A stretch of 64,000 nucleotides of DNA from a virus (Duplodnaviria > Caudoviricetes). Of the stretch, positions 1,015 through 56,548 are shown piece after piece (positions within the stretch are counted from its first letter, which is position 1; each line of letters begins with the position of its first letter). The translations under genes and the position numbers were made by a program. Where the stretch lies: the IMG/VR virus record IMGVR_UViG_2885360797_000005, one strand, 5' to 3'. The notes beneath the pieces were generated by a model that made no database searches, was not told the DNA's origin, and saw nothing but the letters and a program-made list of their open reading frames with translations.

Positions 1015-1271
1015 TTTTCCCTTTTGTTTGAAGCCTTTTGGCTTCTTGGTCGGGAGAACCGTTTTTCGTGCGGTAATCCCTGCGGACAACAGGGAGGATT
1101 AGGCAAGTGTGAGGTCAGAGAGCGCGACGGAATACCCAAATTTTGGAGGCACGAGAAAATTTGTGGAAGGCTGCCGGAAAGCCCTCCGACTGAAAGCGAA
1201 GCGTCACTTGACGTTCCTCCTGTCCGCAGTACCTTTGCACGGGAAAATGGTCCTGACCAAGAAGAGCAAAA
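1015..1271 (+). promoter_or_regulatory. Long hairpin 1, candidate ssDNA (Frpo-like) promoter for the minus-strand operon
   Basis: Nested arms 1042-1055/1251-1264, CTGCGGACA/TGTCCGCAG, CAAGTG/CACTTG, apical 1137-1144/1156-1163; CTTG-N19-TACCTTTG in the 3' arm. Confidence 0.7.
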
Positions 1272-22635: not shown

Positions 22636-23225
22636 GAATTTTACACCTATCAGATACTCACGGTTGCCATCATCGGCTATACGACTTGCCCGAAGCGGAC
22701 ATTCTTGTCCATTCTGGTGATTTCACTATGTCAGGAAGCGAGAAGGAAGCCCTTGACTTCTTGAACTGGTTTTGTGACCTCCCATATCCGCACAAGATAT
22801 TCATCTGTGGTAACCATGATGAATGTCTGTATGGGGCAAACATCAGTGGCCTTAACAACAATGTCCATTATCTATGCAATTCCGGTTTGGAAATTGAAGG
22901 TTTGAAGTTCTATGGTGTACCCATGTTCATGAGTGACTGCATCAGTGACCGACAAAACCGGAACTATGCCGAAATACCTTCCGATACCGATGTGTTGATA
23001 ACGCATTGTCCGCCATACGGCATATTAGACTTTGATGATAACATAAACTACGGCTCGGAAGAATTGTTGCAACGGATTACACAGATTCATCCACGGCTGC
23101 ACTTGTTTGGGCATATACATATACAACATGGAATTACCCATAATGGCGCAACCACATTTTCCAACGGTGCCATTATGAACGTAGATTATTCTCAACTCAA
23201 TGATGCTAATCTGATAGAGCTATAA
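22632..23225 (+). CDS. Calcineurin-like metallophosphoesterase
   Basis: SDTH, HSGD, GNHD, THCPP, FGHIH; 4-nt overlap with the upstream gene. Confidence 0.93.
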   Translation: MRILHLSDTHGCHHRLYDLPEADILVHSGDFTMSGSEKEALDFLNWFCDLPYPHKIFICGNHDECLYGANISGLNNNVHYLCNSGLEIEGLKFYGVPMFMSDCISDRQNRNYAEIPSDTDVLITHCPPYGILDFDDNINYGSEELLQRITQIHPRLHLFGHIHIQHGITHNGATTFSNGAIMNVDYSQLNDANLIEL

Positions 23226-23229
23226 CTCT

Positions 23230-23295
23230 CTTTATATATGTTCAAACTCCGACCCACGCCTCACGGCGGAAGTCGGAGTTTGAACATATATAAAG
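23230..23295. terminator. 24-bp perfect inverted repeat between convergent genes (bidirectional terminator)
   Basis: CTTTATATATGTTCAAACTCCGAC / GTCGGAGTTTGAACATATATAAAG. Confidence 0.7.
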
Positions 23296-23299
23296 GAAC

Positions 23300-24577
23300 T
23301 TATGCTGTTGCCCTTTTTGCCTCCAAGAAGCGGTGGGCATTATCATTCACCAACTTGATAATCCTATCGTGGTATTCAGTGTTGCTGTTGCAAACTCCAC
23401 GACTTTGTACTACTTTCCCTTGGCTCAAACTGAACTCCACGGTCTCGATGCGGTTTCCTTGATGGTCGTGAGCCGATAGAATAACAGAGTCAGTCTTGGC
23501 ATAGTATTCGCATTGGAAAACACAATGCTTCATCTTGTTACCCTCTTCCTTGTAAGCCTCCAGCGAATCCAATACGGAAATTTCTATATCTTCATCGCTG
23601 ATGACAATGCCGAAGAAGCAGGACTTGTTCCTGTAAAACTCGGCTTCGTGTGCCTTGGCTTTTGCCATCCGCTCCATATCCCTACGCTTTTGCTCAATGG
23701 CATCCGCTTTCTTCAACCAATGGTCATGCCCGGTTTTCAAGTTTATCGGACAGATATACTTGACATTACGGATGTCCTTACCGCACTTGTCAAGCAAGCG
23801 GATGATGTCGCACCAAGTACCGAAGTCCTCAATCCGATAATGATGCCGTGAAGCTACTTTGTACGACTGCCAACAGTTATTAAGGTCGAAAGCGTGATAG
23901 ACAAAATACTCAACCGCCTTGTAGTCTCTCGTTTTCATCATTGTTTCCATCCGGTGGTCAGATAAGAGAGATTTCATCAGTTTGAGCGGATGGCAATCGG
24001 GCAATTTGCCTTTCATTCCGTTCCGTCTCAATTCGGGAAGGGCAGAATAATAAGGATAGATATAAGTATCGGATATGACCATATAGATATCAGACAATCT
24101 CCTCAACTCTATCGGACTGGCAAAACTAAAGCGGTCTTGATAATAACCTCTGGTTTTCATTCTTGAAGTAACCGCCACTTGTCCTTTGGCATTGAGCCAC
24201 AAACGGCATATTTCATAATTATAGAAATCCATCGGTTTCCCTTTGTGGTAAATGACCGTCAAAAGGAATACTCGCTGCACTTGCAATCCGTCAATCGCTT
24301 CAAGGGTAGAAAAGTAGCTCCTCTCCTGGTACTTGCGCTTCAACGTATCGGTTACTTGCAAGCGGTGTCCGCAATGAGGACAACGTACAAACTTACCTTT
24401 TCCCTCATAATCAAACTTTTCTCCGCAATCGCCACACGTACATTTACGGTTTGATGTACGGAACGCAATGTGTTTCACGACGTTTCTTATTGCCCACTCC
24501 ACGGCTTTAGAGCCGATGGCGGTCAGCTTCTCATTGGAAGCTGCCACCAATTTCTCAAACTTGTTTCTTGGTTTCAT
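23300..24577 (-). CDS. PcfJ domain protein
   Basis: MKPRNK start, Zn ribbon CGDCG..CPHCG, C-terminal EGNKMKHCV..RIETVE..QSRGVCN. Confidence 0.88.
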   Translation of the reverse strand: MKPRNKFEKLVAASNEKLTAIGSKAVEWAIRNVVKHIAFRTSNRKCTCGDCGEKFDYEGKGKFVRCPHCGHRLQVTDTLKRKYQERSYFSTLEAIDGLQVQRVFLLTVIYHKGKPMDFYNYEICRLWLNAKGQVAVTSRMKTRGYYQDRFSFASPIELRRLSDIYMVISDTYIYPYYSALPELRRNGMKGKLPDCHPLKLMKSLLSDHRMETMMKTRDYKAVEYFVYHAFDLNNCWQSYKVASRHHYRIEDFGTWCDIIRLLDKCGKDIRNVKYICPINLKTGHDHWLKKADAIEQKRRDMERMAKAKAHEAEFYRNKSCFFGIVISDEDIEISVLDSLEAYKEEGNKMKHCVFQCEYYAKTDSVILSAHDHQGNRIETVEFSLSQGKVVQSRGVCNSNTEYHDRIIKLVNDNAHRFLEAKRATA

Positions 24578-24581
24578 ACGC

Positions 24582-25004
24582 TTAAAAATCAAATAGTGAT
24601 AACTCGGTTTGTTGGGGAACTTTGGGTTTGCTTGGCTTGGGTCGGGAGTTTCTGACTTGTATCTTGCGAAACTCCTCCTCTTGATAGCGTTTGAGGGCGA
24701 TGTCCCTTTGTTCAGCCTTTTCCTCCTCTGTCAAGTCTATATGGTGGTTCACTACAACATTACAAGATAATGGCTCGCCAATTATCAATGTTGGCTCTTC
24801 TGCTGCATGGACTGCCATAGAGAACACCTCCATATCGGAAAAACCGCAACAACCTGAATGTTGAACTTCATTGAAAATATAAGTTACAATATCATCAATG
24901 CTACGTGCTGTAGCTTCATACTTGGCACGAAAAAGTTCATCCTCCTTTGCTCGGTTATCAAGGTAGTTTTTGATAATCTCTTTAAATTGCTCTGTTCCTT
25001 TCAT
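24582..25004 (-). CDS. PcfK-like protein (family that includes the Cas9 inhibitor AcrIIA9)
   Basis: MKGTEQFKEIIKNYLDNRAKEDELF..EVQHSGCCGFSDMEV..ELSLFDF. Confidence 0.88.
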   Translation of the reverse strand: MKGTEQFKEIIKNYLDNRAKEDELFRAKYEATARSIDDIVTYIFNEVQHSGCCGFSDMEVFSMAVHAAEEPTLIIGEPLSCNVVVNHHIDLTEEEKAEQRDIALKRYQEEEFRKIQVRNSRPKPSKPKVPQQTELSLFDF

Positions 25005-25034
25005 ATATGTTCGTTTTAAGTTGTTATACATTTA

Positions 25035-25340
25035 CTATCCTATCGGCAACCTCTCTAAAAGTTCCTCCAATGGGATGGTATTGATGTCCTCACTGCGGAA
25101 CAACACTTTCCACTCCGGCTTAACCAACAAGCGATGGAAACACTCAACCGAAAAGCCTTTATTATTAGAGTAGCACTCTATCAAAGCGAAGTTCTTGCCA
25201 TCCTTGCGGATATGAGCATAATCGGGAGCCATACCGAAAGCGCATCTGCGGATGTCCTCTCTGTTCCACAACAAGGTCAGTTCGTAAACATTCCCTTTGA
25301 GGTTTATCTTTTCCTCTCTGTCTTTAAGTGTGATTGCCAT
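25035..25340 (-). CDS. Hypothetical protein (MAITLKDREE...), first gene downstream of hairpin 2
   Basis: ATG at 25340; the longer track ORF runs through the hairpin and is unlikely. Confidence 0.7.
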   Translation of the reverse strand: MAITLKDREEKINLKGNVYELTLLWNREDIRRCAFGMAPDYAHIRKDGKNFALIECYSNNKGFSVECFHRLLVKPEWKVLFRSEDINTIPLEELLERLPIG

Positions 25341-25351
25341 ATGTTCTAATT

Positions 25352-25589
25352 TTTTCCCTTTTGTTTGAAGCCTTTTGGCTTCTCGCTTCCGGGTGATTTT
25401 TACGATGCCATCACACGGAGGAACAAGGGGCGTAAGGCAAATGTGGCAAGCGGAAAGAAAGAGACGGAATACCCAATTTGGCACAAATTGCGGAAGGCTG
25501 CCGTCTGCTTTCCGTGCAGACAAGAGCAGCGGCATTTGCTGTCGGCACCGCCCTCCGTTACTTTGTATCGGGAAATAGAACCGGGAGCG
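25352..25589 (+). promoter_or_regulatory. Long hairpin 2, candidate ssDNA (Frpo-like) promoter
   Basis: Arms 25384-25392/25581-25589, ACGGAGG/CCTCCGT, GCAAATGT/GCATTTGC, CGGAAAG/CTTTCCG; TTTG-N19-TTACTTTG; 32 bp identical to 1015-1046. Confidence 0.7.
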
Positions 25590-25695
25590 CGGATGACCGA
25601 ATGAAGATAACAGGCACAAAAATCCCCGACACCCTTGAACCTTGCGGTTCCCGGATGCCGGGGCAACACATTATGAAAGAGGAAAAATATATTTT

Positions 25696-26845: not shown

Positions 26846-27598
26846 TTACCATTTAAGCAAGTAGCCTTGATTCCATTCCGACACAATGCCGTCAATGATA
26901 TTTTTGCCAGACATCACACTTGCCCAACCCTCCGGGTCAAGAGAGAACCAGAGGTCATTCCAGGATAAGGTACGAACCTGCCATGCCAATATGAATAAAT
27001 CCGTGTTGATGGCTTCCAGTCGGGTCACCACCTCATTGGCGATATAGTACCGCTCGGAGGAGTTGAGCAAGTTCACCTTGTGCTTCTCGTTCTTCCCGTC
27101 CCCACCGGGCACGTTGTAACTGCCCGAAGTCACTAACTGTTTCATGAACGGATAGAGAGCCGCCATCTGTGTTGCCGCATCCGTCAGCTCGTCCGACACG
27201 ATGGCAGCGATAGCCGTACCTTTCAGATTATGCCCGACAGATTTGGTCAACAGGCTGCAGTTCTTTGGTATCTCAGTCGTAACCAATTCCCCTGCACGTT
27301 TAATCTGGTAGAGGTTCTGCATCGCACCCTGCGCATTGGAGAGGTATTCCAGCATCTTGTTCTCCACAGAGTGAATACGGTCAAGGGCCAAGGTCACGGC
27401 TGTCTCGGCAGCGATAATCTGTTCCTGTCTTTTCTTACGTTGCTTGTGGATATTCTTCAATTCCACCGTCTGGGCAATCACCGCACCCGTCAATGCCGGG
27501 TCGGTCTGCTGGGCAAATGTAGGCAAGCCGTTCATCAGGGAAACTGATAGAATGGCCAATGCCGCCACTTTTGATTTTATTCTTATCATATACTTCAC
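26846..27598 (-). CDS. Exported conjugation-associated protein, paralog of 42413-43153
   Basis: Signal peptide; shared NDLxFxxDPEGWA..KN..WN. Confidence 0.7.
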   Translation of the reverse strand: MKYMIRIKSKVAALAILSVSLMNGLPTFAQQTDPALTGAVIAQTVELKNIHKQRKKRQEQIIAAETAVTLALDRIHSVENKMLEYLSNAQGAMQNLYQIKRAGELVTTEIPKNCSLLTKSVGHNLKGTAIAAIVSDELTDAATQMAALYPFMKQLVTSGSYNVPGGDGKNEKHKVNLLNSSERYYIANEVVTRLEAINTDLFILAWQVRTLSWNDLWFSLDPEGWASVMSGKNIIDGIVSEWNQGYLLKW

Positions 27599-28779
27599 AT
27601 TTTAAGACCTGCATTTCTGCGTTCAGTCAAGTTGTGTTCACGTTCCTCTTTATGCGGAGAGATTATCGGCATCATCGACTTGTTCATCAGACAGTCGTTC
27701 CAATCCTTGAAAGCCTTGGGTGGTAGCCATTGACCCATCTTGTAACGAATGGATAGTTTCTCGCTGACCTGTGCCGTTAAAGAGCGTTCCGTATTCAATT
27801 CAAAGGACTTTCCTTTGGCTTCAATAGAAAGAACATCATCCTTTTTACTGATTTTCATTGGAATATCCTCCAGTATCGCCATCATACGCAATCCATAGAT
27901 ACGTCCGGCTAAATCATTGTCGAAACAGTCAAACGCCCTCGCATTAGGGAAACGTGCCATAGTCTCGGTTATCTGCTTGTCAGAGAACGTACCACCCAAT
28001 GAGACCAAAGCCACATCCGTACCTAACAGTATCTTGTTCATTTGATAGAAAGCCATTGCATCGAAAGCTGACTCACAGAAGAACACGCTTCGTACAGCCT
28101 CACGATTGCCACCTGTCAGGTCTGCTACCCAAGCCGAAGAGGACGAATCCGTACCTGCCGCCTTTGATTTGTAACCGCCATAGCCACGAATCTCGTAGCC
28201 GTTGGCTTCGTCACTATGTCCGTTGGTATAAGGAAAACCGATGTTGTAACCGTCAAATTTTCCGTTCCGCTTATCTCTGACAAGAAAAATAAAAGATGAA
28301 AGTTCTTTCACGGTATCATCCGAAATGCCCCGTTGGGAGAATAGTACCGGTATTTTGTTGGTATCAATCGGCTTTACTTCATAGCGTGATTCATCAAATA
28401 CGGCATCGTGTCTGACAGATTTGATATACTCTCTATCTTCCCGGTATTCGGGTTCGGGCATATTGGCAAAGCGTGCCATTACTTTGGCAATCTTCTGCCA
28501 ATCGTCCTTACCCGATACCAAGAATGAATTGAGATTCTCACGGATGAGAGTGACCACATCACCTTTGGAGCCATCCCTGCGGAAGAAAGTCTGAGCCGCC
28601 TTGTTATGCGGATGGCTTACAATGAGGGTGTCACGTCTGTTGTTGCCTTCGCCCAATACCAGCTCGATATATTTGCCGACACCGGCTTTTCGGTCCAGAC
28701 GGTAGCCCAACGTATAAGCTACGTCATCCACACCCACACGGGATTTCATGTCTTTGAAGTTTACTTTGTAATCACTCAT
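27595..28779 (-). CDS. Toprim-domain primase-like protein
   Basis: FCESAFDAMA, CFDNDLAG, KDWND. Confidence 0.85.
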   Translation of the reverse strand: MSDYKVNFKDMKSRVGVDDVAYTLGYRLDRKAGVGKYIELVLGEGNNRRDTLIVSHPHNKAAQTFFRRDGSKGDVVTLIRENLNSFLVSGKDDWQKIAKVMARFANMPEPEYREDREYIKSVRHDAVFDESRYEVKPIDTNKIPVLFSQRGISDDTVKELSSFIFLVRDKRNGKFDGYNIGFPYTNGHSDEANGYEIRGYGGYKSKAAGTDSSSSAWVADLTGGNREAVRSVFFCESAFDAMAFYQMNKILLGTDVALVSLGGTFSDKQITETMARFPNARAFDCFDNDLAGRIYGLRMMAILEDIPMKISKKDDVLSIEAKGKSFELNTERSLTAQVSEKLSIRYKMGQWLPPKAFKDWNDCLMNKSMMPIISPHKEEREHNLTERRNAGLKM

Positions 28780-28802: not shown

Positions 28803-30140
28803 TTACAAGCTAATCCCGGAACTTACCTTCTGACTTCTCCGCATAACTGTCAACTCCGGCTCGTATGTCTTACGTGCCGTCATATTCAGAAATGCCGACT
28901 TATCTTTTTGGTCAGTAAGCTGAAAGAACGTTTTTGCCGTGTCCTTGGTAACTTTCTTCAATCCCAACTCCACACCATTGTAAGAAGCACGGATGGCATA
29001 GTCACCGGAACGGGTCTTGATAATGGCGGCATTCTTGAAGGGAATTTCCTCATCAGCACCCAAGGGAGCAAAAGGGTCGTTCTTGGCAAGGTAAGGCTGT
29101 TCGCCCAATGCCAACCGTTGCTTGTCCACGTGGTCAAGTATCAAGTCTGATGCCTTGTTCACATCCGCCATGATGGAAACGATGAATTTCGGTTCCTTCT
29201 TCAGGACACCAATCCACGAATCCAGATAGGCTGCTGAGTTGTCCGTTATCTTGGAATCAAATCCCATCGAATGGCTGATCATGGCAGCCGTCAGTTCCGC
29301 CACCAATTCCTCCTTCGCATATTTCGGGTCTCCGAACTTGCCACCCATTTCTCGGTTCAGTCGTTCAGCCGTCATGGTCGAGTGCGTCATTTCGTGGAGC
29401 ATGGTGGAATAATACTCCATACCTCCGCGATAGATTTCCTCCGGTGTATTACCGATGTTGAACTGCTCCTTCAAGGGAACAACAATCCGGTCTGCCAAGG
29501 GAGAATAATAAGCACCGTCCACCCGCTTGTCCGCCTGTATCGGGCAGAGCCACCCTTGGGTCTGTACCATACGGTCAAGAGCGGCATGGGCATACATACC
29601 TTCGGTATCTCGAAGCTCCGGTACTTTGAATTTATCCAGCAGCTTTTGCATACGTTCCGGCTGTACCTCTGCCAGATTGGTCTGCGCCACGTTATAAACC
29701 GGGAAAGCCTTGATAAAAGGTATCGCTTCCAAATCTTTCCGTTCCTCGCGGCTCATGGCACGGTATTCATCCGAACTGATTTTCTGTCCGTTCTTGTCCT
29801 TCACCAGCATATCCCAATAGACCACCGGAAAGGCGTGTTCTCCTTTCAGTACATGGGCTTTGAGGTTATGCGCCTGCTTGAAGGTCAGGTAAACAGGGAG
29901 GTCATAACCATTCGCTGCCGTATGAAGTTGGAGGAACAACGAGTTGGAGCCGGAATAGTTCCTGCCGCCCACGTTCTGCGGCAAGCCGGCATAACCCGAT
30001 GCACCGCCAATCCAGCCTTTCTTCCAGTCGGAGGCTTTCATCTGCTCCATACGGTCAATCATCATCGCCGCAAACTTATCCAAAGCGACCTGACCGGCAT
30101 TGCCCGAAGCTGATGGATTGTAATTAGTTCCAGATGCCAT
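28803..30140 (-). CDS. ardC: ArdC-family ssDNA-binding antirestriction protein with zincin domain
   Basis: YSGSN..YLTFKQA, YYSTMLHEMTHST, YAKEELVAEL, SAAYLDSW. Confidence 0.9.
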   Translation of the reverse strand: MASGTNYNPSASGNAGQVALDKFAAMMIDRMEQMKASDWKKGWIGGASGYAGLPQNVGGRNYSGSNSLFLQLHTAANGYDLPVYLTFKQAHNLKAHVLKGEHAFPVVYWDMLVKDKNGQKISSDEYRAMSREERKDLEAIPFIKAFPVYNVAQTNLAEVQPERMQKLLDKFKVPELRDTEGMYAHAALDRMVQTQGWLCPIQADKRVDGAYYSPLADRIVVPLKEQFNIGNTPEEIYRGGMEYYSTMLHEMTHSTMTAERLNREMGGKFGDPKYAKEELVAELTAAMISHSMGFDSKITDNSAAYLDSWIGVLKKEPKFIVSIMADVNKASDLILDHVDKQRLALGEQPYLAKNDPFAPLGADEEIPFKNAAIIKTRSGDYAIRASYNGVELGLKKVTKDTAKTFFQLTDQKDKSAFLNMTARKTYEPELTVMRRSQKVSSGISL

Positions 30141-33151: not shown

Positions 33152-33833
33152 CGCACCATATTAGCAGCAAGTGTACCGGATAGAAAGCATAAAATCCATA
33201 CTTTGCGACATTGCCCTTGATAAATCCTCTTGCGCCATCGTATAAGAATATGGTCATACAAGCCAGCAAAGCACCGATGCTGCCATAGTGCATCATCAAT
33301 GGAAAAGCACAAAGAAGCTGCATCATTCGACCATAGGGAAAAGGAAGATTATCGTTTTGATTTCGTAACAGATTGAAAACTAAAATCATCAATATCCCTC
33401 GCCACTCATAATCCACTCCTGACCAAGTGGCAAGATAAGCAATAGAGAGAATAGCAATCCCACAAAGGACGCTATTCTCTTTCAGTTTCTCCAGTACAGC
33501 CAAAGCCACCACACCCAAAGCCAACGTGAACATCACATTGTGCGTACCGTCCGCTCCATTCAACAGATACCAAGAGACTTCGCTGATAACGGCAAATACC
33601 AATAGCCGTGTAAAGTACCTCTTTCTGTTATGCGTATAAGCGAAGCCTTCCGCTATCAAGAAGGCAAACACCGGGAAAGCGATACGACCAACACAGCGCA
33701 TGGCCTCGTAAAGTGTAGAATTGTTATCCATCAGAAAATAAGCACAATGGTCTATTACCATAGATACAATGGCGATAATCTTTAGTACACTACCGCTAAA
33801 AGTGGGTATCTTCGCAAGTCTTTCCATAATCAA
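33129..33833 (-). CDS. traX: TraX-family membrane protein
   Basis: LKIIAIVSMVIDH, GRIAFPVFAFLIAEGF, FYAFYPVHL. Confidence 0.9.
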   Translation of the reverse strand: MIMERLAKIPTFSGSVLKIIAIVSMVIDHCAYFLMDNNSTLYEAMRCVGRIAFPVFAFLIAEGFAYTHNRKRYFTRLLVFAVISEVSWYLLNGADGTHNVMFTLALGVVALAVLEKLKENSVLCGIAILSIAYLATWSGVDYEWRGILMILVFNLLRNQNDNLPFPYGRMMQLLCAFPLMMHYGSIGALLACMTIFLYDGARGFIKGNVAKYGFYAFYPVHLLLIWCVITFLAH

Positions 33834-36139
33834 CTCATTCCAAGCAGTTCCTTGACCATATCCTCGACCTCCTGATTAACACGTTTGAAATTGCGGTTCA
33901 GCATTATCTCTTTCTCACGGTCATTCTTAAACTCATAGATTTTAGGGAGAACCACATAGTGGTCTTCCTCCATCTTAATCTTCTTCATATCGAAGTGGGT
34001 CTTGCAGAAATACTTCGTGGTCTTGAACTCCTCCGACTGCTCAATGTCGAAGCTGTTAAGCATCTTGTCATCGGTAGCGGTAAAGTCACGTGCCGCCTGA
34101 CCTGCCAGCCAACCGGTAGCCATGTCCGCTATCTTGGCTGCCGGAACAAGGTAGTCCATCTTCTCCGAGATGGTGGTAGATACCTTTTGGTCGTTGATGG
34201 AGATTGAGCGTGAGGTCTGCTTCGCCTTGCCGAACACGTCATTCTGTGCCCATTCCAATGTTTCCTTGTTACGAGCCGCCCCCATGAAGATATTACCGCA
34301 AGTGGTGATAATCTTCTGCATACCCACCTTGCCATAGTCCGCTTCCAACTGAGGCAACTCTTGGAAACCCAATGTGACGGCTACCTTGTTGGAGCGTGCC
34401 GTACCAATCAGCCGGTCTATCTTATGGAAATACAGAGTGGGCAGCTCGTCCACGATGATGCTTACCGGGATGTTCCCCTTAGAGTTCACTCTTGTAATCA
34501 GTCGGTTCAATACCAGAGCGTTCAGCGAACCGATTACCTGTTCCTTTTCCGGGTCGTTGGCTATGACTAAATAGCTCGGATGCTCCTTGTCAGAAATCTT
34601 CAAGTCGAAGTCATCACCCGTAAATACCCAATAGGCTTCAGGAGATACCAATCTTGCGGCATTGACACGAAGCGTACCAACCATACCTTCCAACTGGTCA
34701 TTCGCCTTGTTCTCAAAAGCACTCTTGAAGGGAGCCATTAGTGAGGCTATCTTGTCATCCTGCATCAGGATGTTGAACACCTGGTCGTAAGACCTACCAA
34801 GGAAGGACAATACGTGCGGCATATCAGAAAACTCGCCCGTAATGGTGTCCGGCTCAACCTCATTGCCGTGTTCATCCTCATACCAGCAGCGTTCAATCTT
34901 AATCAACCTTTTGGTTCTGTCCTTATAAGAAAAGCCGTTCAAGTCCACAAACATCCTATCCTCATCCGTAGAAACATCATTGCCGTTCTCATCAACAAAG
35001 TCTAACACCACGTTTCCCTTATCGTCTATGGCATTGAAGTCATCCCAATTCCGAATAACAATCTCCAGTTTCTTTCCCTCCAGTAGAATATAGCGTTTCA
35101 ACTTCTTTCCGTTCCTGAACCCGACAGGGTGGAAGTTTACAAAGAAATAGATAATCGCTGCCAGGAAGTTCTCTGCCGAATTGGTGAAGAAGGCTTCCGA
35201 GCCGCCTTTCTTCTCGCCACCTCCCTTGTTCAAGGATGCCAGCAAAGTAGCAGCCGTTTCAGAAGCCGCCGCCAAGTCCGGGATATACTTCCGTTGAATA
35301 GGATTGATTCGGTCTGAGTATTCCACATCCGTAAAGTTGATGGTACGGAAACCACAATTAGCTGGAAGCCTTCCGGCTTTCCGATTCTTGCAGAACTGAT
35401 AGAAAAGCGTCTTTGCCAATGTCGGGTACTTGAAATCGTACACCATCATGGCAAACCCTTTTGCGGCGTGTTGTCTTATGAACGGGTCAATGATACCGAA
35501 AGACTTACCCGAACCAGGAGTACCGAGAACAATCGTGCCACGGAACGGGTTGATGATATTGATCCAACCCTTGTGCATCTTCCGTTTCCAATAGTATATC
35601 ATCGGTATGTTTACCGAGTAGTCGTTATTGGCAAGCACTTCCGACTGTTGGAAGGACTCATTCTCGAAATTGAAACGGTCATCACCAACCTTATAGTTGT
35701 AATACTTGGCGATGCCATCCAATCCCTGATGCACCAGCATGGTACCTACCACAGAACATACGGCATAGAGAATACGATTGGCAGGGAATCCCATCCAACT
35801 CATTCCGAAGTCCATCTTGTGAAAGAGGAAACAAAGTCCGACAAGGGTCAATCCGACTAATACAGGGTAGATGACCATTGTCTTCACATTGAACTTCAAT
35901 GCCTTCTTCGCCTTTGTGCCAATACACACCACACAGATGCAGACCAGTTCCACCATCTTGCAACCCGAAACGGACGTGAACACGGGGAATCTGCCTAACA
36001 GGTCAAGAATAAACTGCGTAATACGGTTATCTGCCGCAATGGGCAGATTCATAATTATCTCAATGATGAGAAAGATGTAGATGCAGCTACGGAAGTAGTT
36101 ATACATCTGCTGCTGTTCCCTTGTTTCTTCAAATGCCAT
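33830..36139 (-). CDS. Type IV coupling protein (VirD4/TraD; Bacteroides MobC-like)
   Basis: N-terminal TMs, FNFENESF, INPFRGTIVLGTPGSGKS, DELPT, TARSNKVA. Confidence 0.92.
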   Translation of the reverse strand: MAFEETREQQQMYNYFRSCIYIFLIIEIIMNLPIAADNRITQFILDLLGRFPVFTSVSGCKMVELVCICVVCIGTKAKKALKFNVKTMVIYPVLVGLTLVGLCFLFHKMDFGMSWMGFPANRILYAVCSVVGTMLVHQGLDGIAKYYNYKVGDDRFNFENESFQQSEVLANNDYSVNIPMIYYWKRKMHKGWINIINPFRGTIVLGTPGSGKSFGIIDPFIRQHAAKGFAMMVYDFKYPTLAKTLFYQFCKNRKAGRLPANCGFRTINFTDVEYSDRINPIQRKYIPDLAAASETAATLLASLNKGGGEKKGGSEAFFTNSAENFLAAIIYFFVNFHPVGFRNGKKLKRYILLEGKKLEIVIRNWDDFNAIDDKGNVVLDFVDENGNDVSTDEDRMFVDLNGFSYKDRTKRLIKIERCWYEDEHGNEVEPDTITGEFSDMPHVLSFLGRSYDQVFNILMQDDKIASLMAPFKSAFENKANDQLEGMVGTLRVNAARLVSPEAYWVFTGDDFDLKISDKEHPSYLVIANDPEKEQVIGSLNALVLNRLITRVNSKGNIPVSIIVDELPTLYFHKIDRLIGTARSNKVAVTLGFQELPQLEADYGKVGMQKIITTCGNIFMGAARNKETLEWAQNDVFGKAKQTSRSISINDQKVSTTISEKMDYLVPAAKIADMATGWLAGQAARDFTATDDKMLNSFDIEQSEEFKTTKYFCKTHFDMKKIKMEEDHYVVLPKIYEFKNDREKEIMLNRNFKRVNQEVEDMVKELLGMS

Positions 36140-46295: not shown

Positions 46296-49183
46296 CTACT
46301 TGAAGAATAGCGGAAGAGCCTCGGACAAAGCGATAAAGGCGATACAGCCACCGATGGTGAGCATGATGGTCTTCTTCACGTCCTGGTCGCCGTTTGGTAG
46401 GCTCGACACAAAGCGCGTTACCGCATTGCTGCGGCACGTTTCCACGTGTCTGCCCCCGAACCGGACGTACATGTCTCCATGTATCCGGCTCTCCAGTGGT
46501 TTAACTCTATGTGTCATAAGCAAGTGTCTCATTTCTTTTTCTGATTGATGATTTCCATACAAGATTTACATACTGCAAGCGTCTTTCTCCTGCGTCTGAG
46601 CATCTGCCTACCCCAAGGGGTATCGTTGTCAAGCTCAGACAGCAACCGCACATGGTGCATATGGAGCTGTTGGTTTTCTTGACCGCATAACTCACACTTT
46701 CCCGCTTTCAGACGGTTGATTAGAGTCGTTTTCGGCAATTGCTCCGCGACTGCCTCAAGATGTGTCTGCTCGTCATAGCCCTTGGGCTTCCTTGCGAATC
46801 CCATGTTGTAGAGGACGGTCTCCTTGGTGGTTCCGTTCTTATCCTTATGGGTAATCACGAATCTACCTTTCTTGGAGTAGCGTCTTTTGACCTTGGATTT
46901 GGTCAGGTTCAGCTTTTGGGCCAGCGTTTTGCATAGACTGTATTCCATGATGTACGCGAATGACGAACATTGTCTTGAACAGTTATTGGCGATGCAGTAG
47001 TAATTGTAGAATCCTCTTATCTCCGAATTGAACCTGCTGAGGATAATGTGCGGTTCCATTGCCAGCATCTTTGTACGCGATTTCGGCATCCACACGGTTT
47101 TGCCGTCCAACTCACGGTATGTGACGGCATCGTGCTTTTCAAGAGCCTTTCTCACGGTCTCGGAATTTACAAGCAACTGCACTTTTCCTCTATGGTTGCG
47201 TTGGAGAATGCCCCTGCTGTTTCTGCTCATCATGTCGGAGTTCAGCACCGTAATATCATAGCCAAGGAATTTTGCGGTTTCCTCGCAATGGGTTATCAAG
47301 GTCTTTTCGGGCGACAGTTCGAGTTTGAGGCAATCACGCATATGTGCAGTGATGTCTGCCTTGATGTTCTCGCAGTCTGTCTTTGACCCGATTACGCCTA
47401 TAAGGAAATCGTCAGCATACCTTGTATATACGATACGTCGGTAATCTTCGTCCATATCGAGCTTGCAGGGAATGGTTCTCAGTTGAGCCTGCATGACGGC
47501 AAGCCGTTCCGTCATGTCAGCCCTCTTGTTTTCATCTGTCTCTTGGCGCAGTTTGCGTCTCAACGCACAAGTTTTGGTATTGAGATTGAAATACGTCGGA
47601 TTGCGCTTGCGACCTACACCTCTGTTAAAAGTCTTGGCATAATCTTCCATGTATCTGTCGAAGCGGTTAAGGTAGATATTGGCAAGTATCGGGGAGATAA
47701 TGCCACCTTGGGGTGTGCCGTGATAGGATTCATGGAATTTCCAATCCTCGACATATCCTGCATTGAGGAACTTACGAATCATACGGAGAAAACGCTCGTC
47801 GGAAATCCGCTCACGCAGGATGTCGATGAGTGTGTCGTGGTCGATATTGTCGAAGAAGCCTTTTATGTCACCTTCGACAAACCACTTCACACCCGTGAAC
47901 GTCCTTTGAATCTGAGTCAGTGCGGTATGGCAGCTCTTGTGAGGTCTGAAGCCATGGGAGCGGTCGGAGAACGCACCCTCATAGATGGCTTGCAGAATCA
48001 TCCGCGCTACCTCCTGCACAAGCTTGTCACTCCATGACGGGATTCCGAGAGGACGCAGTTTCCCGTTTTTCTTCGGGATATATGTCCTCTTTGCAGGATG
48101 TGGGGTATAGGTCTCATCCTTGAGACTTTCAATCAGTCGCTTAATCTTCGCGAGGCTCATGCCGTCCATGGTCTCCCCGTCAGTGCCGGGCGTCATGTTG
48201 CCCTGCTTGACTTTGAGCCTCTCGTAAGCGGCATAATACATCTCCTCATTGAAGAGCAAGCGGTAGAGACGCTCGTACTTATAGTCCGAGGTCTTGCTGT
48301 GTGAACACAGAGTGTCGATTATCAACTGTGGATTTCTCATACGTCTCTCACGTCTTCTACGGTTGATAACTGACAGCCACCTGCCACCCTTCGCCATGTA
48401 CGCGGCTTTCCCGCGCTCGGACTACTATGGTGGCTCCGTTGCCATGTCGGGTATTCATGACCTTTGTCAATAGCCTTGCGGCATCCCGATTTAGGCAATC
48501 TTCGCTTAGATATATAGCAACAGGCACAGCATACTGTCGGATACGACTTTCGTTCTTCTATCCGCTTATTGCGGTCGCTTCGGGACTGACTCGTTGCCTT
48601 GCGCGAAAATGCAGGTCGCGCAGGTGTCCCGATACGGCGTATGTAACTGCTTTCCGCCGTAGCCACTTCTAAGGCCGCTGAACTATCGTTCAACCAATCA
48701 GGCTTTATCCTCATGTATGCCTTTCTTCCTTGCACCTCAGTCGCGGATTTGCAGTTATCCGACTCGGCACTTTTCAGACATGCTGTTTTCCTCCCTTGGT
48801 TTCCCGCAGAAGTGTCCGCTCCGTCACCACAAGGGTGGCAGAGAGTAAGTCTGATGGAAGTAGGTAAAATTGAGTCCATACCTAAACTATTGCTATTTAG
48901 TTATTTGCTATATATCCTATACGAACGCACACATCTTGAAATACACGTTGAAAGCTCCCACCAAGGCGATTACGGCTGCGATTGCCTTCATCAGGTTGGA
49001 AACCGGGGTCTGGTAGGAACTGATTTCGGTGGTGGCTTTTGTAAAGCCGGCCGCACCTTTGCTTGCCGCCATCATGTCACCCACGGAGATGGTAAGTGCG
49101 GTTACTGCCAACAAGCTTTTGTGTGCGAAAGAGGAACCCATGAAGCGGTCATACGCACGTTTCAGTTTTTTCTTGAATTGCAT
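46296..49183 (-). CDS. traE: TraE (DUF4134, pilin-like), split: exon 1 49183-48931, exon 2 46396-46296; 117 aa when spliced
   Basis: Joining ATG T|CA AAC restores ..FNVYFKMSNGDQDVKKTIMLTIGGCIAF.. in frame. Confidence 0.88.
46397..48930 (-). mobile_element. Group II intron (2534 nt, LtrA-like protein) inserted in traE
   Basis: 5' GTGCG at 48930; domain V GAGCCGGATACATGGAGACATGTACGTCCGGTTC; 3' ..CCTAC at 46397. Confidence 0.93.
46529..48340 (-). CDS. ltrA: Intron-encoded reverse transcriptase/maturase with C-terminal HNH-type domain
   Basis: RPLGIP, GTPQGG, RYADD, CELCG..MHHVR..VCKSC; ATG at 48340. Confidence 0.93.
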   Translation of the reverse strand: MRNPQLIIDTLCSHSKTSDYKYERLYRLLFNEEMYYAAYERLKVKQGNMTPGTDGETMDGMSLAKIKRLIESLKDETYTPHPAKRTYIPKKNGKLRPLGIPSWSDKLVQEVARMILQAIYEGAFSDRSHGFRPHKSCHTALTQIQRTFTGVKWFVEGDIKGFFDNIDHDTLIDILRERISDERFLRMIRKFLNAGYVEDWKFHESYHGTPQGGIISPILANIYLNRFDRYMEDYAKTFNRGVGRKRNPTYFNLNTKTCALRRKLRQETDENKRADMTERLAVMQAQLRTIPCKLDMDEDYRRIVYTRYADDFLIGVIGSKTDCENIKADITAHMRDCLKLELSPEKTLITHCEETAKFLGYDITVLNSDMMSRNSRGILQRNHRGKVQLLVNSETVRKALEKHDAVTYRELDGKTVWMPKSRTKMLAMEPHIILSRFNSEIRGFYNYYCIANNCSRQCSSFAYIMEYSLCKTLAQKLNLTKSKVKRRYSKKGRFVITHKDKNGTTKETVLYNMGFARKPKGYDEQTHLEAVAEQLPKTTLINRLKAGKCELCGQENQQLHMHHVRLLSELDNDTPWGRQMLRRRRKTLAVCKSCMEIINQKKK

Positions 49184-51680: not shown

Positions 51681-53237
51681 TTATCTCTTCAAGGAATGTC
51701 CGTCATCTATATCGTCATAACCGCCTTTCTGTCCGACTTCCCATTCCCGTTTTTCAGAGTGGCTGCCTTCTCCGTGGTCTCGCATCTTGTTGTAACGGGA
51801 GAGTGGCTTATTGGCAGAGTGCTTCGGGTGTGGTTGTTGCTGTTTAGTCGGCTTCCGTTTCAGTCGCTCCAGATTGAAACCTTCTTCTGACAGGTTGATG
51901 ATGATGTGGTTCTTAAAGTTGATGGCGTATGTGGCATCTTCTTCCTGACGGATGATGAAGCCTTCCTCACGAAGGGCACTTCTGACGGAAGAGATTGTTT
52001 CATCATCGAAGATTTCCTTCAGGCGATTGATTGCATCTATATGGGACGCTGCTCTTTCAGACGAAAGGGAAACAAGGTCGGGGCGGTTCACCTTATAGAT
52101 TTTGCAAAGCAAATCACGTTCTGCCTCTGTGGTGGGTTGGAACTTCTCTACCAACTCGATGCGGTTGTTGCGGTCTATGGCTTCTGCCATAAACGGTTTC
52201 AAATGCCGGGACTCTCCATTGAAATAGATGACACCTTTCTTTATATAGGCGTGATGTTTCTTTAGTTTTTGGAATATCTCGCCCTGGGTTATCTTGGGAT
52301 TGAGGGTGAGTAATTGGTCTATGAAATCCTCTATGCGATCAAAGCGTTGTTCGGGGGTGGCGAAGTCCAACAGTTCATCAATGGCTAACACTCTTGCCCC
52401 GTGGATAACAGTCTTGTTGGCGTGGTCAACGAGTATGTAGCCGTATGCCGCATCCTTCTTGCCGAAGAACACGATGTCGATACCGAACTTGGTTTTCAGT
52501 TCCTTTTGGAGTTCTTCCTTGTTGGAGCTTACGTCACGATATTTTTTGAGGATGCTCCGAAGCTGGCGGTTACGTGCTCTGTTGTAGTCGCGTTTCTTAT
52601 ACAATGCCTCGATACTACTTATAGGAAATTTCTCTTGCACTTTGCCACCATGCTTGACAAATATCGTTCCATTCTTCTGATAGACTTCATAGCCCATTGA
52701 AGTCATTACGGCTTTGAACTGGGCGAAAGAGGAGAAGGTGTATTGCTTGGCTGCATCCAAATCTTTATTGACTTCTTCCTTTCGGTCGTTCCCCAGTATG
52801 CGGTCAATCACTTCCTGTGAACGTCTGCGCTCATGGTCGTGCTGTATCTTCCTGCCATCCGGTGCGATGCGTGAAGTGACGATGTGCAGGTGGGTGTTAT
52901 CGGTATCATAGTGGGAATAGACCAACAAGGGTTGTCCCTCCTCACCATATCCCATTTCTGTCAGATAGCGGTGAGCGAAGTCCAGTAGTTCTGCCTCTGT
53001 CATTTCATGTCCCTTACAGGAAAAGGCTACGTGGAACTGTGCCTTTTCAATCCGGGTGTTTCGGGAGGTGTATTCCTGAAGGTATGTGACCAGTTCCTCC
53101 GGGGTAGGTTTTCCGAATGTGCCGAGTGTACCGAAGTTCTGCATTTCGAGCATACGGGCAACTCCTTTCGCTACTTTACGCTCATTGTAACCGACTGCAT
53201 GGAAGTTCGAGTTTCCGGGTAATATGGTTGCTATCAT
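51681..53237 (-). CDS. Relaxase (MOB_P family)
   Basis: AVGYNERK, FHVAFS, HYDTDNTHLHIVTSR HUH motif. Confidence 0.92.
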   Translation of the reverse strand: MIATILPGNSNFHAVGYNERKVAKGVARMLEMQNFGTLGTFGKPTPEELVTYLQEYTSRNTRIEKAQFHVAFSCKGHEMTEAELLDFAHRYLTEMGYGEEGQPLLVYSHYDTDNTHLHIVTSRIAPDGRKIQHDHERRRSQEVIDRILGNDRKEEVNKDLDAAKQYTFSSFAQFKAVMTSMGYEVYQKNGTIFVKHGGKVQEKFPISSIEALYKKRDYNRARNRQLRSILKKYRDVSSNKEELQKELKTKFGIDIVFFGKKDAAYGYILVDHANKTVIHGARVLAIDELLDFATPEQRFDRIEDFIDQLLTLNPKITQGEIFQKLKKHHAYIKKGVIYFNGESRHLKPFMAEAIDRNNRIELVEKFQPTTEAERDLLCKIYKVNRPDLVSLSSERAASHIDAINRLKEIFDDETISSVRSALREEGFIIRQEEDATYAINFKNHIIINLSEEGFNLERLKRKPTKQQQPHPKHSANKPLSRYNKMRDHGEGSHSEKREWEVGQKGGYDDIDDGHSLKR

Positions 53238-53340: not shown

Positions 53341-53730
53341 CTATAGTTTGACAGCTTTGCGTGTCACGGCTTCAAGGTCTCTCTTTATCTCGTTCAATGT
53401 TTTCTGGGTTTCAAGGATAACCGGCATCAAGACCTCCCGGATATAGCTGGGTGGAAGTAACCCGGCTACCGCAAGTTCATTGGCTCTCTTGACCGACTGA
53501 TTCAGGTTTCCGCCTGCCCAGGATAATTCATCCCGGAACTTCCGGTAAAACGTACCAAGGTTATTGATTAGTTCTAACCGTTGTTTGGCATCGGTGTTTG
53601 AATACTCTGCCATTGCTGAACGAACATAAGTGGCAATGGTCATCTTTTTCTCTTTCAGTTTCTCTTTGAGCGTTGATTGCTCCTCCGGGGTCATTCGTAC
53701 CTTAATGTACTTGGTCTTTTGAGTCATCAT
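53341..53730 (-). CDS. Relaxosome accessory protein (MobA/MobC RHH type)
   Basis: IKVRMTPEE..YVR, GGNLNQSVKRAN. Confidence 0.88.
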   Translation of the reverse strand: MMTQKTKYIKVRMTPEEQSTLKEKLKEKKMTIATYVRSAMAEYSNTDAKQRLELINNLGTFYRKFRDELSWAGGNLNQSVKRANELAVAGLLPPSYIREVLMPVILETQKTLNEIKRDLEAVTRKAVKL

Positions 53731-53815
53731 ACAATAGTCCTTTAGTAAAATTGGTTTCCTGAACCTTTTTCGCAAGGCGAAACAGCGAGAAATCGCTCCG
53801 ATGCGGTAGCAGTCG

Positions 53816-53886
53816 GCAAGTCACCTTTGTTGATACGAAACGGAGTTTTGTGGCCACAAAGGTACAACTTGCTTGACAAATCCTGC
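53816..53886 (+). other. Candidate origin of transfer (oriT)
   Basis: Nested IRs GCAAGT/ACTTGC, ACCTTTGT/ACAAAGGT and palindrome TTTGTGGCCACAAA, then MOB_P nic-like ACTTGC and ATCCTGC; upstream of mobA. Confidence 0.65.
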
Positions 53887-54971: not shown

Positions 54972-56468
54972 CTAGAAACCTTTGCCCTTGCTTCTTTCGT
55001 AAACCACTTCTTTTTGAGAATCGCAATTAGTAAGACGGAACTGAACATTACAGCCTGTGGGGATGTCTTTGGGCAGTTGTTTGACAAGTTCCGTAATGAC
55101 TTCATCCACGTTACTGAAACCTATATCTGTAAGTTCGCCCACAACCTTGCCTTTGAAATAAGCCCGACCATAAATCATCATCTTCTTTGATATACGGAAG
55201 AGTTTGTCCTCTGTTTCTTCCAAGTCTTTCGCCTTGCCTTGTTTACTTTTCTCATCGCTAAAAAAGATGAAGTCAATGACTTTTGCATTCAGATTCCATG
55301 CCGGGGTAAAGTCTATCTTGACATATCCTCTGGTAATGTTAAATCCGTGGCTATGGTTCATACCAAAAGCAACTTCATAAAGGTTCGCATCGCAATCATT
55401 CTGAGCAATGGTAGCCCAAGTATGCCGGAATGTATAGAAGCAATAACAATCTTCTTTATCCATACCCATGTCCTGACAAATTTTGCGGATGCCGATATTC
55501 ACATTCGCATTGAAGCTATCAGAATTACTATAACGCTGATGGAAATTGAACAGGTATGGTTCATCCTTGTCATCTGAAAGATATTTTTCAAATGTGGATT
55601 GTATGAATGGCTCAATTCGCATTTCCATATAGGCATTATCTCTACGACTGTTGCGAGTCTTGGCTCTTTGATAGCCTATAATTCCGTTTTTATAGTCTTT
55701 CTTTTTGAGCTCGTACAAATCGACGGAGTTAATACCGCCAATACATAGCGATAGGAGAGCAACATCCCTGCCCAGTTCCGGTAGGGAAGAAATCATTTTT
55801 GTTTTGGGAAGAGGCCTATTAAAGAACTCACGACAGGCTTCGGCACTGATAGCTTTCTGAACTGAATTATCCGACTTGGGAATGGAAATCTTTAGCCAAG
55901 GATTGAACTTGATGCGGTTTACACCTCTTTCATCGTCATTCAAATCAGCGATGGCAGCTTTGAAAATTTGACGAATGTTCGTAGGGTACATTTCTTTTGC
56001 CCGGCTCGTTTGCGACAAACTCTCAATCCACTTCTTCAGGACGGTAGAAGTCAGAAGGCTAAACATAAGCCTGTTTGAGCCTAAGAAGCGTTCAAGATGC
56101 GCCACGGCAAGTTTGTAGTTCTTGGCGGTTCTTTGCCGACCTTCCTTTTCCATTTTGTGAATGAACGATTGGGCATACTCGCTAAAACAAACTTCTTCAT
56201 CTGTCTTCTGCAAATACTCCAGTACATCCTTGACATCCCAAAGAGAAATATCAGTTCTATTCAGCCTGTCGGTGTATTGTCGGATAATCATCGAACAATA
56301 CTCATTGACCACCGGATCGGTCAATTCACCGTTGCTGTCAATATGTGCTGCATCAATAATCTTATTGGTCTTGATGTAGCCCGGCTTTCTGTTGTGAACA
56401 ATGCGAATGTACACGGAGAAGAAACCGTCTGTCCTTGGTTTTCGCACTACTGCTTTTAATGTAATCAT
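54972..56468 (-). CDS. int: Tyrosine integrase of the ICE
   Basis: Arm-binding and SAM-like N-terminus; GINSVDL, RAKT, YTFRHTWATIA, MNH..ITRGY. Confidence 0.9.
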   Translation of the reverse strand: MITLKAVVRKPRTDGFFSVYIRIVHNRKPGYIKTNKIIDAAHIDSNGELTDPVVNEYCSMIIRQYTDRLNRTDISLWDVKDVLEYLQKTDEEVCFSEYAQSFIHKMEKEGRQRTAKNYKLAVAHLERFLGSNRLMFSLLTSTVLKKWIESLSQTSRAKEMYPTNIRQIFKAAIADLNDDERGVNRIKFNPWLKISIPKSDNSVQKAISAEACREFFNRPLPKTKMISSLPELGRDVALLSLCIGGINSVDLYELKKKDYKNGIIGYQRAKTRNSRRDNAYMEMRIEPFIQSTFEKYLSDDKDEPYLFNFHQRYSNSDSFNANVNIGIRKICQDMGMDKEDCYCFYTFRHTWATIAQNDCDANLYEVAFGMNHSHGFNITRGYVKIDFTPAWNLNAKVIDFIFFSDEKSKQGKAKDLEETEDKLFRISKKMMIYGRAYFKGKVVGELTDIGFSNVDEVITELVKQLPKDIPTGCNVQFRLTNCDSQKEVVYERSKGKGF

Positions 56469-56495
56469 ATACAATTATTTAATAAGTTGAACCTT

Positions 56496-56548
56496 GGTGT
56501 AAGCAGGTGTAAGCAAGGGGGTCATTTGGTGTAAGCAGAGAGTAAGCA
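56496..56548. repeat. Direct repeats GGTGTAAGCA x3 plus AGTAAGCA, candidate integrase arm sites
   Basis: Copies at 56496, 56506, 56528 and 56541, between int and the element end. Confidence 0.7.

Follow-up and report, generated by a model that had tools for sequence, protein, structure and literature searches.

Hairpin 2, a long imperfect hairpin in the window (the whole 64,000-nucleotide stretch of DNA analysed here), is probably a single-strand promoter of a Bacteroidota type that heads a unit consisting of a gene for a 101-aa protein, a PcfK gene and a PcfJ gene. We put the probability of this reading at about 0.7, and regard the element as a functional analogue of Frpo that has no sequence homology to it. 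The reading is built on features that can be observed directly: the structure of the hairpin, the strand on which it folds, its covariation among relatives, the invariance and placement of its promoter boxes, its fixed position before ORF starts and the polarity of oriT. The window is part of a contig (C322) in a 2.9-Mb Bacteroidales metagenome-assembled genome, and carries an integrative conjugative element (ICE).

A conserved, strand-specific DNA hairpin

The + strand folds at 25384-25589 into a hairpin of 206 nt and 70 pairs, with 25384:25589 as the outermost pair and a basal stem in which CGCTTCCGG (25384-25392) pairs with CCGGGAGCG (25581-25589). The DNA minimum free energy of the segment 25342-25600 was -51 kcal/mol, against -37.2 +/- 3.8 kcal/mol for dinucleotide-preserving shuffles (z -3.6), and none of 200 shuffles folded as well. 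An apical domain occupies 25463-25505 (+), with GACGG...CCGTC in its closing 7-bp helix. The leader block at 25352-25383, which contains GAAGCC-TTTT-GGCTTC, is identical to 1015-1046 over exactly 32 bp, the length reported in an earlier note on this DNA. No other long hairpins were found between 23000 and 34000, and a search of Rfam gave nothing at the gathering threshold in the hairpin region and only chance-level matches at E <= 10.

A sister copy, hairpin 1, lies 24 kb from hairpin 2 on the same strand, at about 1047-1270 (+). The earlier note described the two copies as alike in architecture and different in their stems, with certain internal segments in common, and this description is accurate: both copies match the same covariance model (R1, introduced below), they are about 71% identical over the part that can be aligned, their stems differ, and GACGGAATACCCAA (25463 in hairpin 2) and GGAAGGCTGCCG (25492) are present in each.

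A BLAST search with the hairpin against 401 genomes spread evenly over the order found it in only two besides its own genome. As this approach was too insensitive and its sampling too thin, it was replaced by loci anchored on PcfK and by a covariance model. With the PcfK protein as anchor, 22 loci were collected from Bacteroides, Phocaeicola, Prevotella, Paraprevotella, Muribaculaceae and Alistipes assemblies; most bear both core motifs antisense to PcfK, and the same long hairpin forms in each. The covariance model R1, built from 19 copies, recovers hairpin 2 (217.7 bits) and hairpin 1 (183.7 bits) in their own genome and nothing else there. Among Bacteroidaceae-family genomes (the family of a Phocaeicola vulgatus assembly), 19 of 151 contain copies, one to five per genome, and the copies in R1-positive genomes cluster on one contig and one strand. 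The family set analysed here comprises 52 distinct hairpin copies from Bacteroidales conjugative elements. PLSDB plasmids searched by blastn with the hairpin gave no match.

The earlier note argued for function from a structure that is kept while its sequence changes, and the family bears out that observation. In the model-fitted alignment of the 52 copies, 88.9% of cells are paired, whereas shuffling leaves 73% and sliding of the partners 32-44%, and double-sided changes are seen in 34 of the 43 pairs; none of 500 shuffles attained any of the observed measures. A model-fitted alignment is biased towards the structure of its model, and an independent MAFFT/RNAalifold run found compensatory change in 21 of 43 pairs. 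The basal stem, which lies outside R1, also co-varies: flanks taken from the same copy pair at a mean of -16.1 kcal/mol, flanks from different copies at -9.6 kcal/mol.

The structure also has a preferred strand. With DNA parameters, 50 of 52 copies fold more stably on the + strand than on the - strand (mean -47.3 versus -42.1 kcal/mol). On that strand, G-T pairs number 143 against 78 A-C juxtapositions in all, and about 46 against 4 where the helices are best supported, and the wobbles of hairpin 2 (four of its 70 pairs) are G-T on the + strand, as had been noted earlier. Hairpin 2 is a real, conserved and strand-specific DNA hairpin, and more than a product of chance.

Further variants of the element may be seen at contig ends in the same assembly (G000). 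Three short contigs, C211, C163 and C212, stop (L003:1400-1544, L004:1-140 and L005:1450-1594) within a different version of the leader block and the start of the hairpin (GAAGCTC..GAGCTTCTCCGGC). Each of these precedes different small genes, and one precedes a 392-aa gene. They probably represent additional hairpin units at which the assembly broke.

Promoter boxes on the 3' arm and the genes beside the 5' arm

The 3' arm of hairpin 2 bears the promoter boxes, and we infer that its 5' arm serves as template. A -33 element, TTTG at 25535-25538 (+), sits within a 9-bp duplex (25436-25444 : 25532-25540), and a -7 element, TTACTTTG at 25558-25565 (+), follows it after 19 nt; position, spacer length and the single mismatch are all as the earlier note gave them. 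The mismatch is a T for A at -11, and leaves TTACTTTG with five of the six near-invariant positions of TAnnTTTG. Bases 25559-25564 of the box are unpaired, in a 6x6 interior loop that faces 25409-25414. With its -33 TTTG correctly spaced and a -7 element that agrees at five of six positions, the putative promoter meets the criteria for a Bacteroidetes sigma-ABfr promoter.

The -7 element recognized by the primary sigma factor of Bacteroidetes has six near-invariant positions, T-12, A-11, T-8, T-7, T-6 and G-5 (PMC6847099), and its two n positions avoid G (PMC6847099; PMC4747536), as do the n positions of the hairpin family. The hairpin boxes share their -33 and -7 elements, their 19-nt spacing and their near-invariant positions with the standard Bacteroides sigma-ABfr promoter (PMC6847099; Bayley et al. 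2000, as cited in PMC4747536). They differ from the standard promoter in being opposite in strand to the genes served, which they face only when the strand folds back on itself.

Across the 52 copies, the sequence of the 3' arm varies, and does so in step with its partner, everywhere except in the promoter elements. The -33 element contains TTG in every copy, preceded by T or C, within a helix that is 96.8% paired across the family, and the spacer to the -7 box measures 18-19 nt. The -7 columns read T (52/52), A (44/52), n, C (46/52), T (52/52), T (52/52), T (45/52) and G (52/52); a T at -11, as in hairpin 2, is found in eight copies, all of them in the subgroup that adjoins PcfK, and hairpin 1 has a perfect TACCTTTG box with CTTG 19 nt upstream. 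Throughout the family, an interior loop holds the first six bases of the -7 box, and the side of the 5' arm that faces them is almost without sequence conservation. Such one-sided invariance of a loop cannot be explained by pairing, and fits recognition of the non-template strand by sigma.

From the numbering of the -7 positions (PMC6847099) and the pairing table, we infer that +1 corresponds to 25570 on the 3' arm, five bases past G-5 at 25565. This base pairs with C25403, which makes 25403 (-) the predicted first templated base. The leader would then be 63 nt long and A-rich, running from 25403 down to 25341, with the ATG at 25340, and would include the 32-bp block. On the minus strand, that block reads as a predicted A-rich mRNA leader in which 25367-25382 form a small hairpin of 6 bp, and variants of it are kept in relatives.

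A conventional minus-strand promoter would, according to the earlier note, refute its inference of expression from ssDNA; no promoter of the Bacteroides type was found on the minus strand between 25341 and 25620. A sigma-70/terminator scanner found no sigma-70-like site in the hairpin, and missed the Bacteroides boxes and the large-loop terminator, as its rules predict. The terminator is an intrinsic-terminator-like stem-loop with a U-run (25616-25663, -; -35 kcal/mol, z -3.2) that closes the upstream operon 27 nt before the hairpin base. With no minus-strand promoter and a terminator just upstream, the unit itself appears to have no conventional promoter. A similar terminator was found ahead of 21 of 51 family members, compared with 8 control windows. 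Hairpin 2 differs from hairpin 1 in belonging to the subgroup adjoining PcfK and PcfJ, where a terminator usually lies just upstream, and in its T at -11.

In nearly all copies, an ORF starting with ATG on the opposite strand begins 27-74 nt past the hairpin base. Of the 52 units, 16 have PcfK as one of their first three ORFs, with PcfJ behind it in several; other units encode small proteins without a family, DUF2958, DUF6926, one Peptidase_S24 protein and one DprA-like protein. The earlier note held that hairpin 2 heads an AcrIIA9-like/PcfJ operon. PcfK and PcfJ are indeed in the unit, but its first gene is the ORF of 101 aa (25035-25340, -), not PcfK. This conserved, beta-strand-rich protein has no Pfam or NCBIfam match and no solved relative; it has 24 homologues, none informatively named, and its AlphaFold2 model (pLDDT 80.8) found no fold match in the PDB at E <= 0.001. 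We regard it as a candidate early-entry anti-defence protein.

The PcfK-family gene follows at 24582-25031 (-; PF14058, E 4e-52). Its PcfK domain justifies the term "AcrIIA9-like" at the level of the family only, there being no Cas9-inhibition data for it; to our knowledge, such activity has been shown only for the original AcrIIA9. No solved relative was found for the PcfK homologue of the window. AcrIIA9 itself bears the PcfK Pfam domain (PMC6739104). The last gene of the unit encodes a PcfJ-family protein with an N-terminal zinc ribbon (23300-24592, -; PF14284, E 6e-42). Between the convergent ends of PcfJ and a metallophosphoesterase gene lies a 39-nt inverted repeat of 85% complementarity (23222-23303), probably a two-way terminator at the boundary of the island described below.

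Inferred transferred strand, proposed expression on entry and alternative roles

The backbone genes of the ICE within the window are all on the minus strand. They comprise the integrase (54972-56474), a NikA-like accessory gene (53341-53775), a MobA/VirD2-type relaxase (51681-53237), a ParA-like gene and tra genes (TraG, TraM, DUF4138) down to the coupling protein (33830-36139), and two establishment-type genes, one ArdC-like (28803-30140) and one DUF3991-Toprim (27595-28779). A group II intron is inserted in the tra region (46397-48397, -), with its Rfam RF00029 domain at 46397-46493 and an ORF for a reverse transcriptase/maturase/HNH protein at 46529-48397. Between hairpin 1 and hairpin 2 lies a 22-kb island of plus-strand defence genes, among them type I restriction-modification, an AAA_5/EVE protein and a RecD2-like helicase. 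The spacing between two hairpin copies on one contig ranges from about 6.5 to 28 kb among relatives (G401, G503, G527, G431, G420, G403), and the variable interval suggests a hot spot for cargo insertion, filled in the window by the 22-kb defence island (1300-23300).

The motif TTGGTGTAAGC is repeated beside the ICE integrase (56494-56536) and recurs at L077:8792-8803 beside a paralogous 497-aa integrase, which lies 48 kb to the left and adjoins a prophage. The repeated motif may represent shared arm-type sites or tandem integration. Direct repeats did not serve to define the ends of the ICE, the only matches near the two integrases being 11-12 nt long, and the distances from nick to hairpin are for this reason given as ranges.

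A candidate oriT is located just upstream of the nikA-like gene (53823-53886, +) and consists of a 19-nt inverted repeat (53823-53863) with ACAACTTGCTTG and then ATCCTG|C (53880-53886) behind it. In MOBP and MOBQ systems such as RP4 and T-DNA borders, the strand that is nicked carries the repeat 5' of the nick site, whose core reads ATCCTG|C; we take the ATCCTG|C of the window to be an RP4-like nick core. The arrangement of repeat and core in those systems places the putative nick, which has not been mapped, on the + strand, with the nikA and relaxase genes predicted to enter last. The inverted repeat keeps its pairing by compensatory change, and its flanks are conserved in five related elements; the exact core occurs in only two of six aligned oriT regions.

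The relaxase is typically in the last-entering region (PMC11541004). In the window and in four of four related elements (5/5), the gene for the relaxase is found past the tra genes, and relaxase and hairpins occupy opposite strands. The + strand, which bears the hairpins, is likely to be the transferred strand and the template of the genes that they head, as far as the sequence can indicate. Hairpin 2 is on the predicted entering side of the candidate oriT. The predicted nick would be about 5-13 kb from hairpin 1 and about 29-37 kb from hairpin 2, the latter lying far from it, and outside the first kilobases to enter, because of the 22-kb cargo island.

Based on these features, we propose the following course of events. 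During conjugation, the + strand would be nicked at the oriT beside the nikA and relaxase genes and enter the recipient 5' to 3', and 25384-25589 would fold back while still single-stranded. With its -33 TTTG in duplex and most of the -7 box (TTACTTTG) unpaired, the fold would resemble a sigma-ABfr promoter that has already been opened. Host RNA polymerase could then start near template base 25403 and read the 5' arm leftwards, out of the hairpin, to transcribe the 101-aa gene, the AcrIIA9-family PcfK gene and PcfJ. Once the complementary strand is made, the boxes would point away from the genes of the unit, and the terminator at 25616-25663 would insulate them. As the boxes are averted in the duplex and a terminator lies upstream, a short burst of expression on entry is expected. 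The inference of the earlier note, that an anti-Cas9-family gene is wired for expression from ssDNA, is thus supported in every part open to a computational check. Use of the hairpin by RNA polymerase, the start site, transient expression and the anti-defence role are all inferred, and the analysis is computational, with no experiment behind it.

We counted in favour of the promoter reading the kinds of genes served (PcfK, Peptidase_S24, DprA-like and small unknown proteins), which are those of leading regions. Several points were counted against it: the distance of hairpin 2 from the predicted nick, the T at -11, an overall excess of G-T over A-C of only 143 to 78, a conserved apical domain that a simple promoter would not need, and boxes that could fire rightwards in the duplex. 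The nick and the transferred strand, moreover, rest on sequence alone, with ATCCTG|C in only two of the six regions.

The apical domain deserves separate mention. Unpaired GGAATACCC and GGAAGGCTG are nearly invariant around its 7-bp helix, and this conservation exceeds what a promoter needs; the domain may bind a protein or serve in priming. The apical loop tolerates insertions of about 70 nt (L010, L059, L063). One speculative model, unlikely but conceivable, treats the hairpin as a sensor of strand state with two outputs. Its single-stranded form would fire leftwards into the anti-defence unit while the apical domain docks a protein of the host or the element, such as SSB or the Toprim/DUF3991 primase, coupling transcription to priming, and its duplex form would fire rightwards, antisense, and help to shut the upstream establishment operon.

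Priming could alternatively be the main role of the hairpin, as an ssi site at which RNA polymerase or a Toprim/DUF3991 primase primes the complementary strand in the recipient, with mRNA as a by-product. F Frpo has been described as serving primer synthesis as well as transcription (Masai and Arai 1997, as cited in PMC12672017), the apical domain with its invariant unpaired bases looks like a site recognized by a protein, a Toprim/DUF3991 protein (27595-28779) is among those that the element encodes, and several copies per element lie on one strand. Priming alone, however, needs neither a fixed 27-74 nt to an ORF start nor a conserved A-rich leader, and the invariant bases make up a complete promoter, which goes beyond a primase site. 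The two roles are compatible, and we consider it rather improbable that priming is the principal one.

A duplex promoter on the + strand, firing rightwards to give an antisense or small RNA against the upstream operon, would leave the hairpin incidental or otherwise used. In duplex form the boxes do face rightwards and could yield antisense RNA, and TTTG, 19 nt and TTACTTTG are as close to consensus on the + strand there as in the fold. Nothing to the right of the hairpin base is conserved in the family, however, so that there is no conserved product, and such a promoter leaves unexplained why the 5' arm co-varies, why the -7 box sits at an interior loop and why the distance to an ORF on the other side is fixed. 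This explanation is quite unlikely.

Conserved structure beside a start codon is typical of mRNA leaders, and covariation by itself cannot separate RNA from DNA; the hairpin might accordingly act as RNA, either as a folded 5' leader on the minus-strand mRNA or as a + strand RNA whose structure controls translation or stability. The + strand bias in stability and in G-T pairs argues against structure in a minus-strand mRNA, where folding is worse in all but two copies and the G-T pairs become A-C mismatches. The terminator, moreover, leaves only 27 nt for a promoter, with none seen there; a -7-like box on the + strand within the leader block is not kept in relatives; and no Rfam family matches. 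An RNA element is therefore very unlikely.

Least likely is a selfish or recombinational repeat (MITE-like, or an attC-like cassette site) with no part in expression. Genomes do contain several copies, assemblies are broken at the element, downstream gene content varies and a cargo hot spot adjoins it. The copies within one element are, however, only about 71% identical with their structure kept by compensatory change, their orientation is fixed relative to genes and relaxase, they lie 5' of ORFs whereas attC lies 3', and no integron integrase is nearby, the integrases at the element ends showing tyrosine-recombinase N-terminal (SAM-like/arm-binding) domains.

Relation to known single-strand promoters

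Bacteroidales ICEs rank among the main vehicles of resistance, defence and metabolic genes in the gut, and how they survive arrival in cells armed with CRISPR or restriction is poorly understood. In enterobacterial plasmids, single-strand promoters account for early anti-defence expression. If the single-strand promoter reading of hairpin 2 is true, R1 would be a searchable marker for entry-expressed genes, most of which encode small unknown proteins, and would point to anti-defence candidates; the same device would have been convergently invented for a very different sigma factor; and the hairpin could serve as a component of tools for conjugative delivery in gut Bacteroides.

Experimental support for single-strand promoters exists in the enterobacterial plasmids F, ColIb-P9 and pESBL (class 1-3 in pESBL) (PMC9849209; PMC12672017; PMC11541004; Masai and Arai 1997). 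In the literature searched, we found no report of such promoters in Bacteroides, Bacteroidota or Bacteroidales. A large survey of leading regions included MOB type B and does not mention Bacteroidota; it relied on Frpo homology and sigma-70 boxes only (PMC11541004), and would therefore have missed a Bacteroidota version.

Promoters active on ssDNA have also been reported for the pLS20 family of Bacillus plasmids (PMC6294495, PMC8708921). As interpreted here, hairpin 2 would share with the pLS20-family case the principle that establishment genes are read from the incoming single strand outside the Proteobacteria, and differs from it in phylum and sigma factor.

The closest likeness is to Frpo1 and Frpo2 (ssi) of F and ColIb-P9 and to the pESBL promoters, which are long imperfect hairpins on the transferred strand, as we infer hairpin 2 to be. 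In common with these, hairpin 2 has its gene beside the 5' arm and its boxes on the 3' arm towards the base, occurs in several copies on one strand, and lies ahead of presumed establishment and anti-defence genes that run in the same direction as the tra genes. The Frpo1 region of F, upstream of ssb, forms a hairpin of about 310 nt on the transferred strand with the gene beside its 5' arm, and the leading-region genes of F point towards oriT in the same orientation as the tra genes, the same circular topology as in the ICE of the window.

Hairpin 2 departs from Frpo in several respects. Its boxes are those of Bacteroidota sigma-ABfr (-33 TTTG / -7 TAnnTTTG), not the -35/-10 boxes of sigma-70 (TTGACA / TATAAT); it is shorter (206 versus about 310 nt) and has a conserved apical domain; and it resides on an integrative element, up to tens of kilobases from oriT. 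When R1 was run with filters off against 18 kb of the F leading region, the best score was 11.7 bits and nothing was found at the ssb-proximal hairpin. Hairpin 2 is not a sequence member of the Frpo family; as far as function can be inferred, it works like Frpo.
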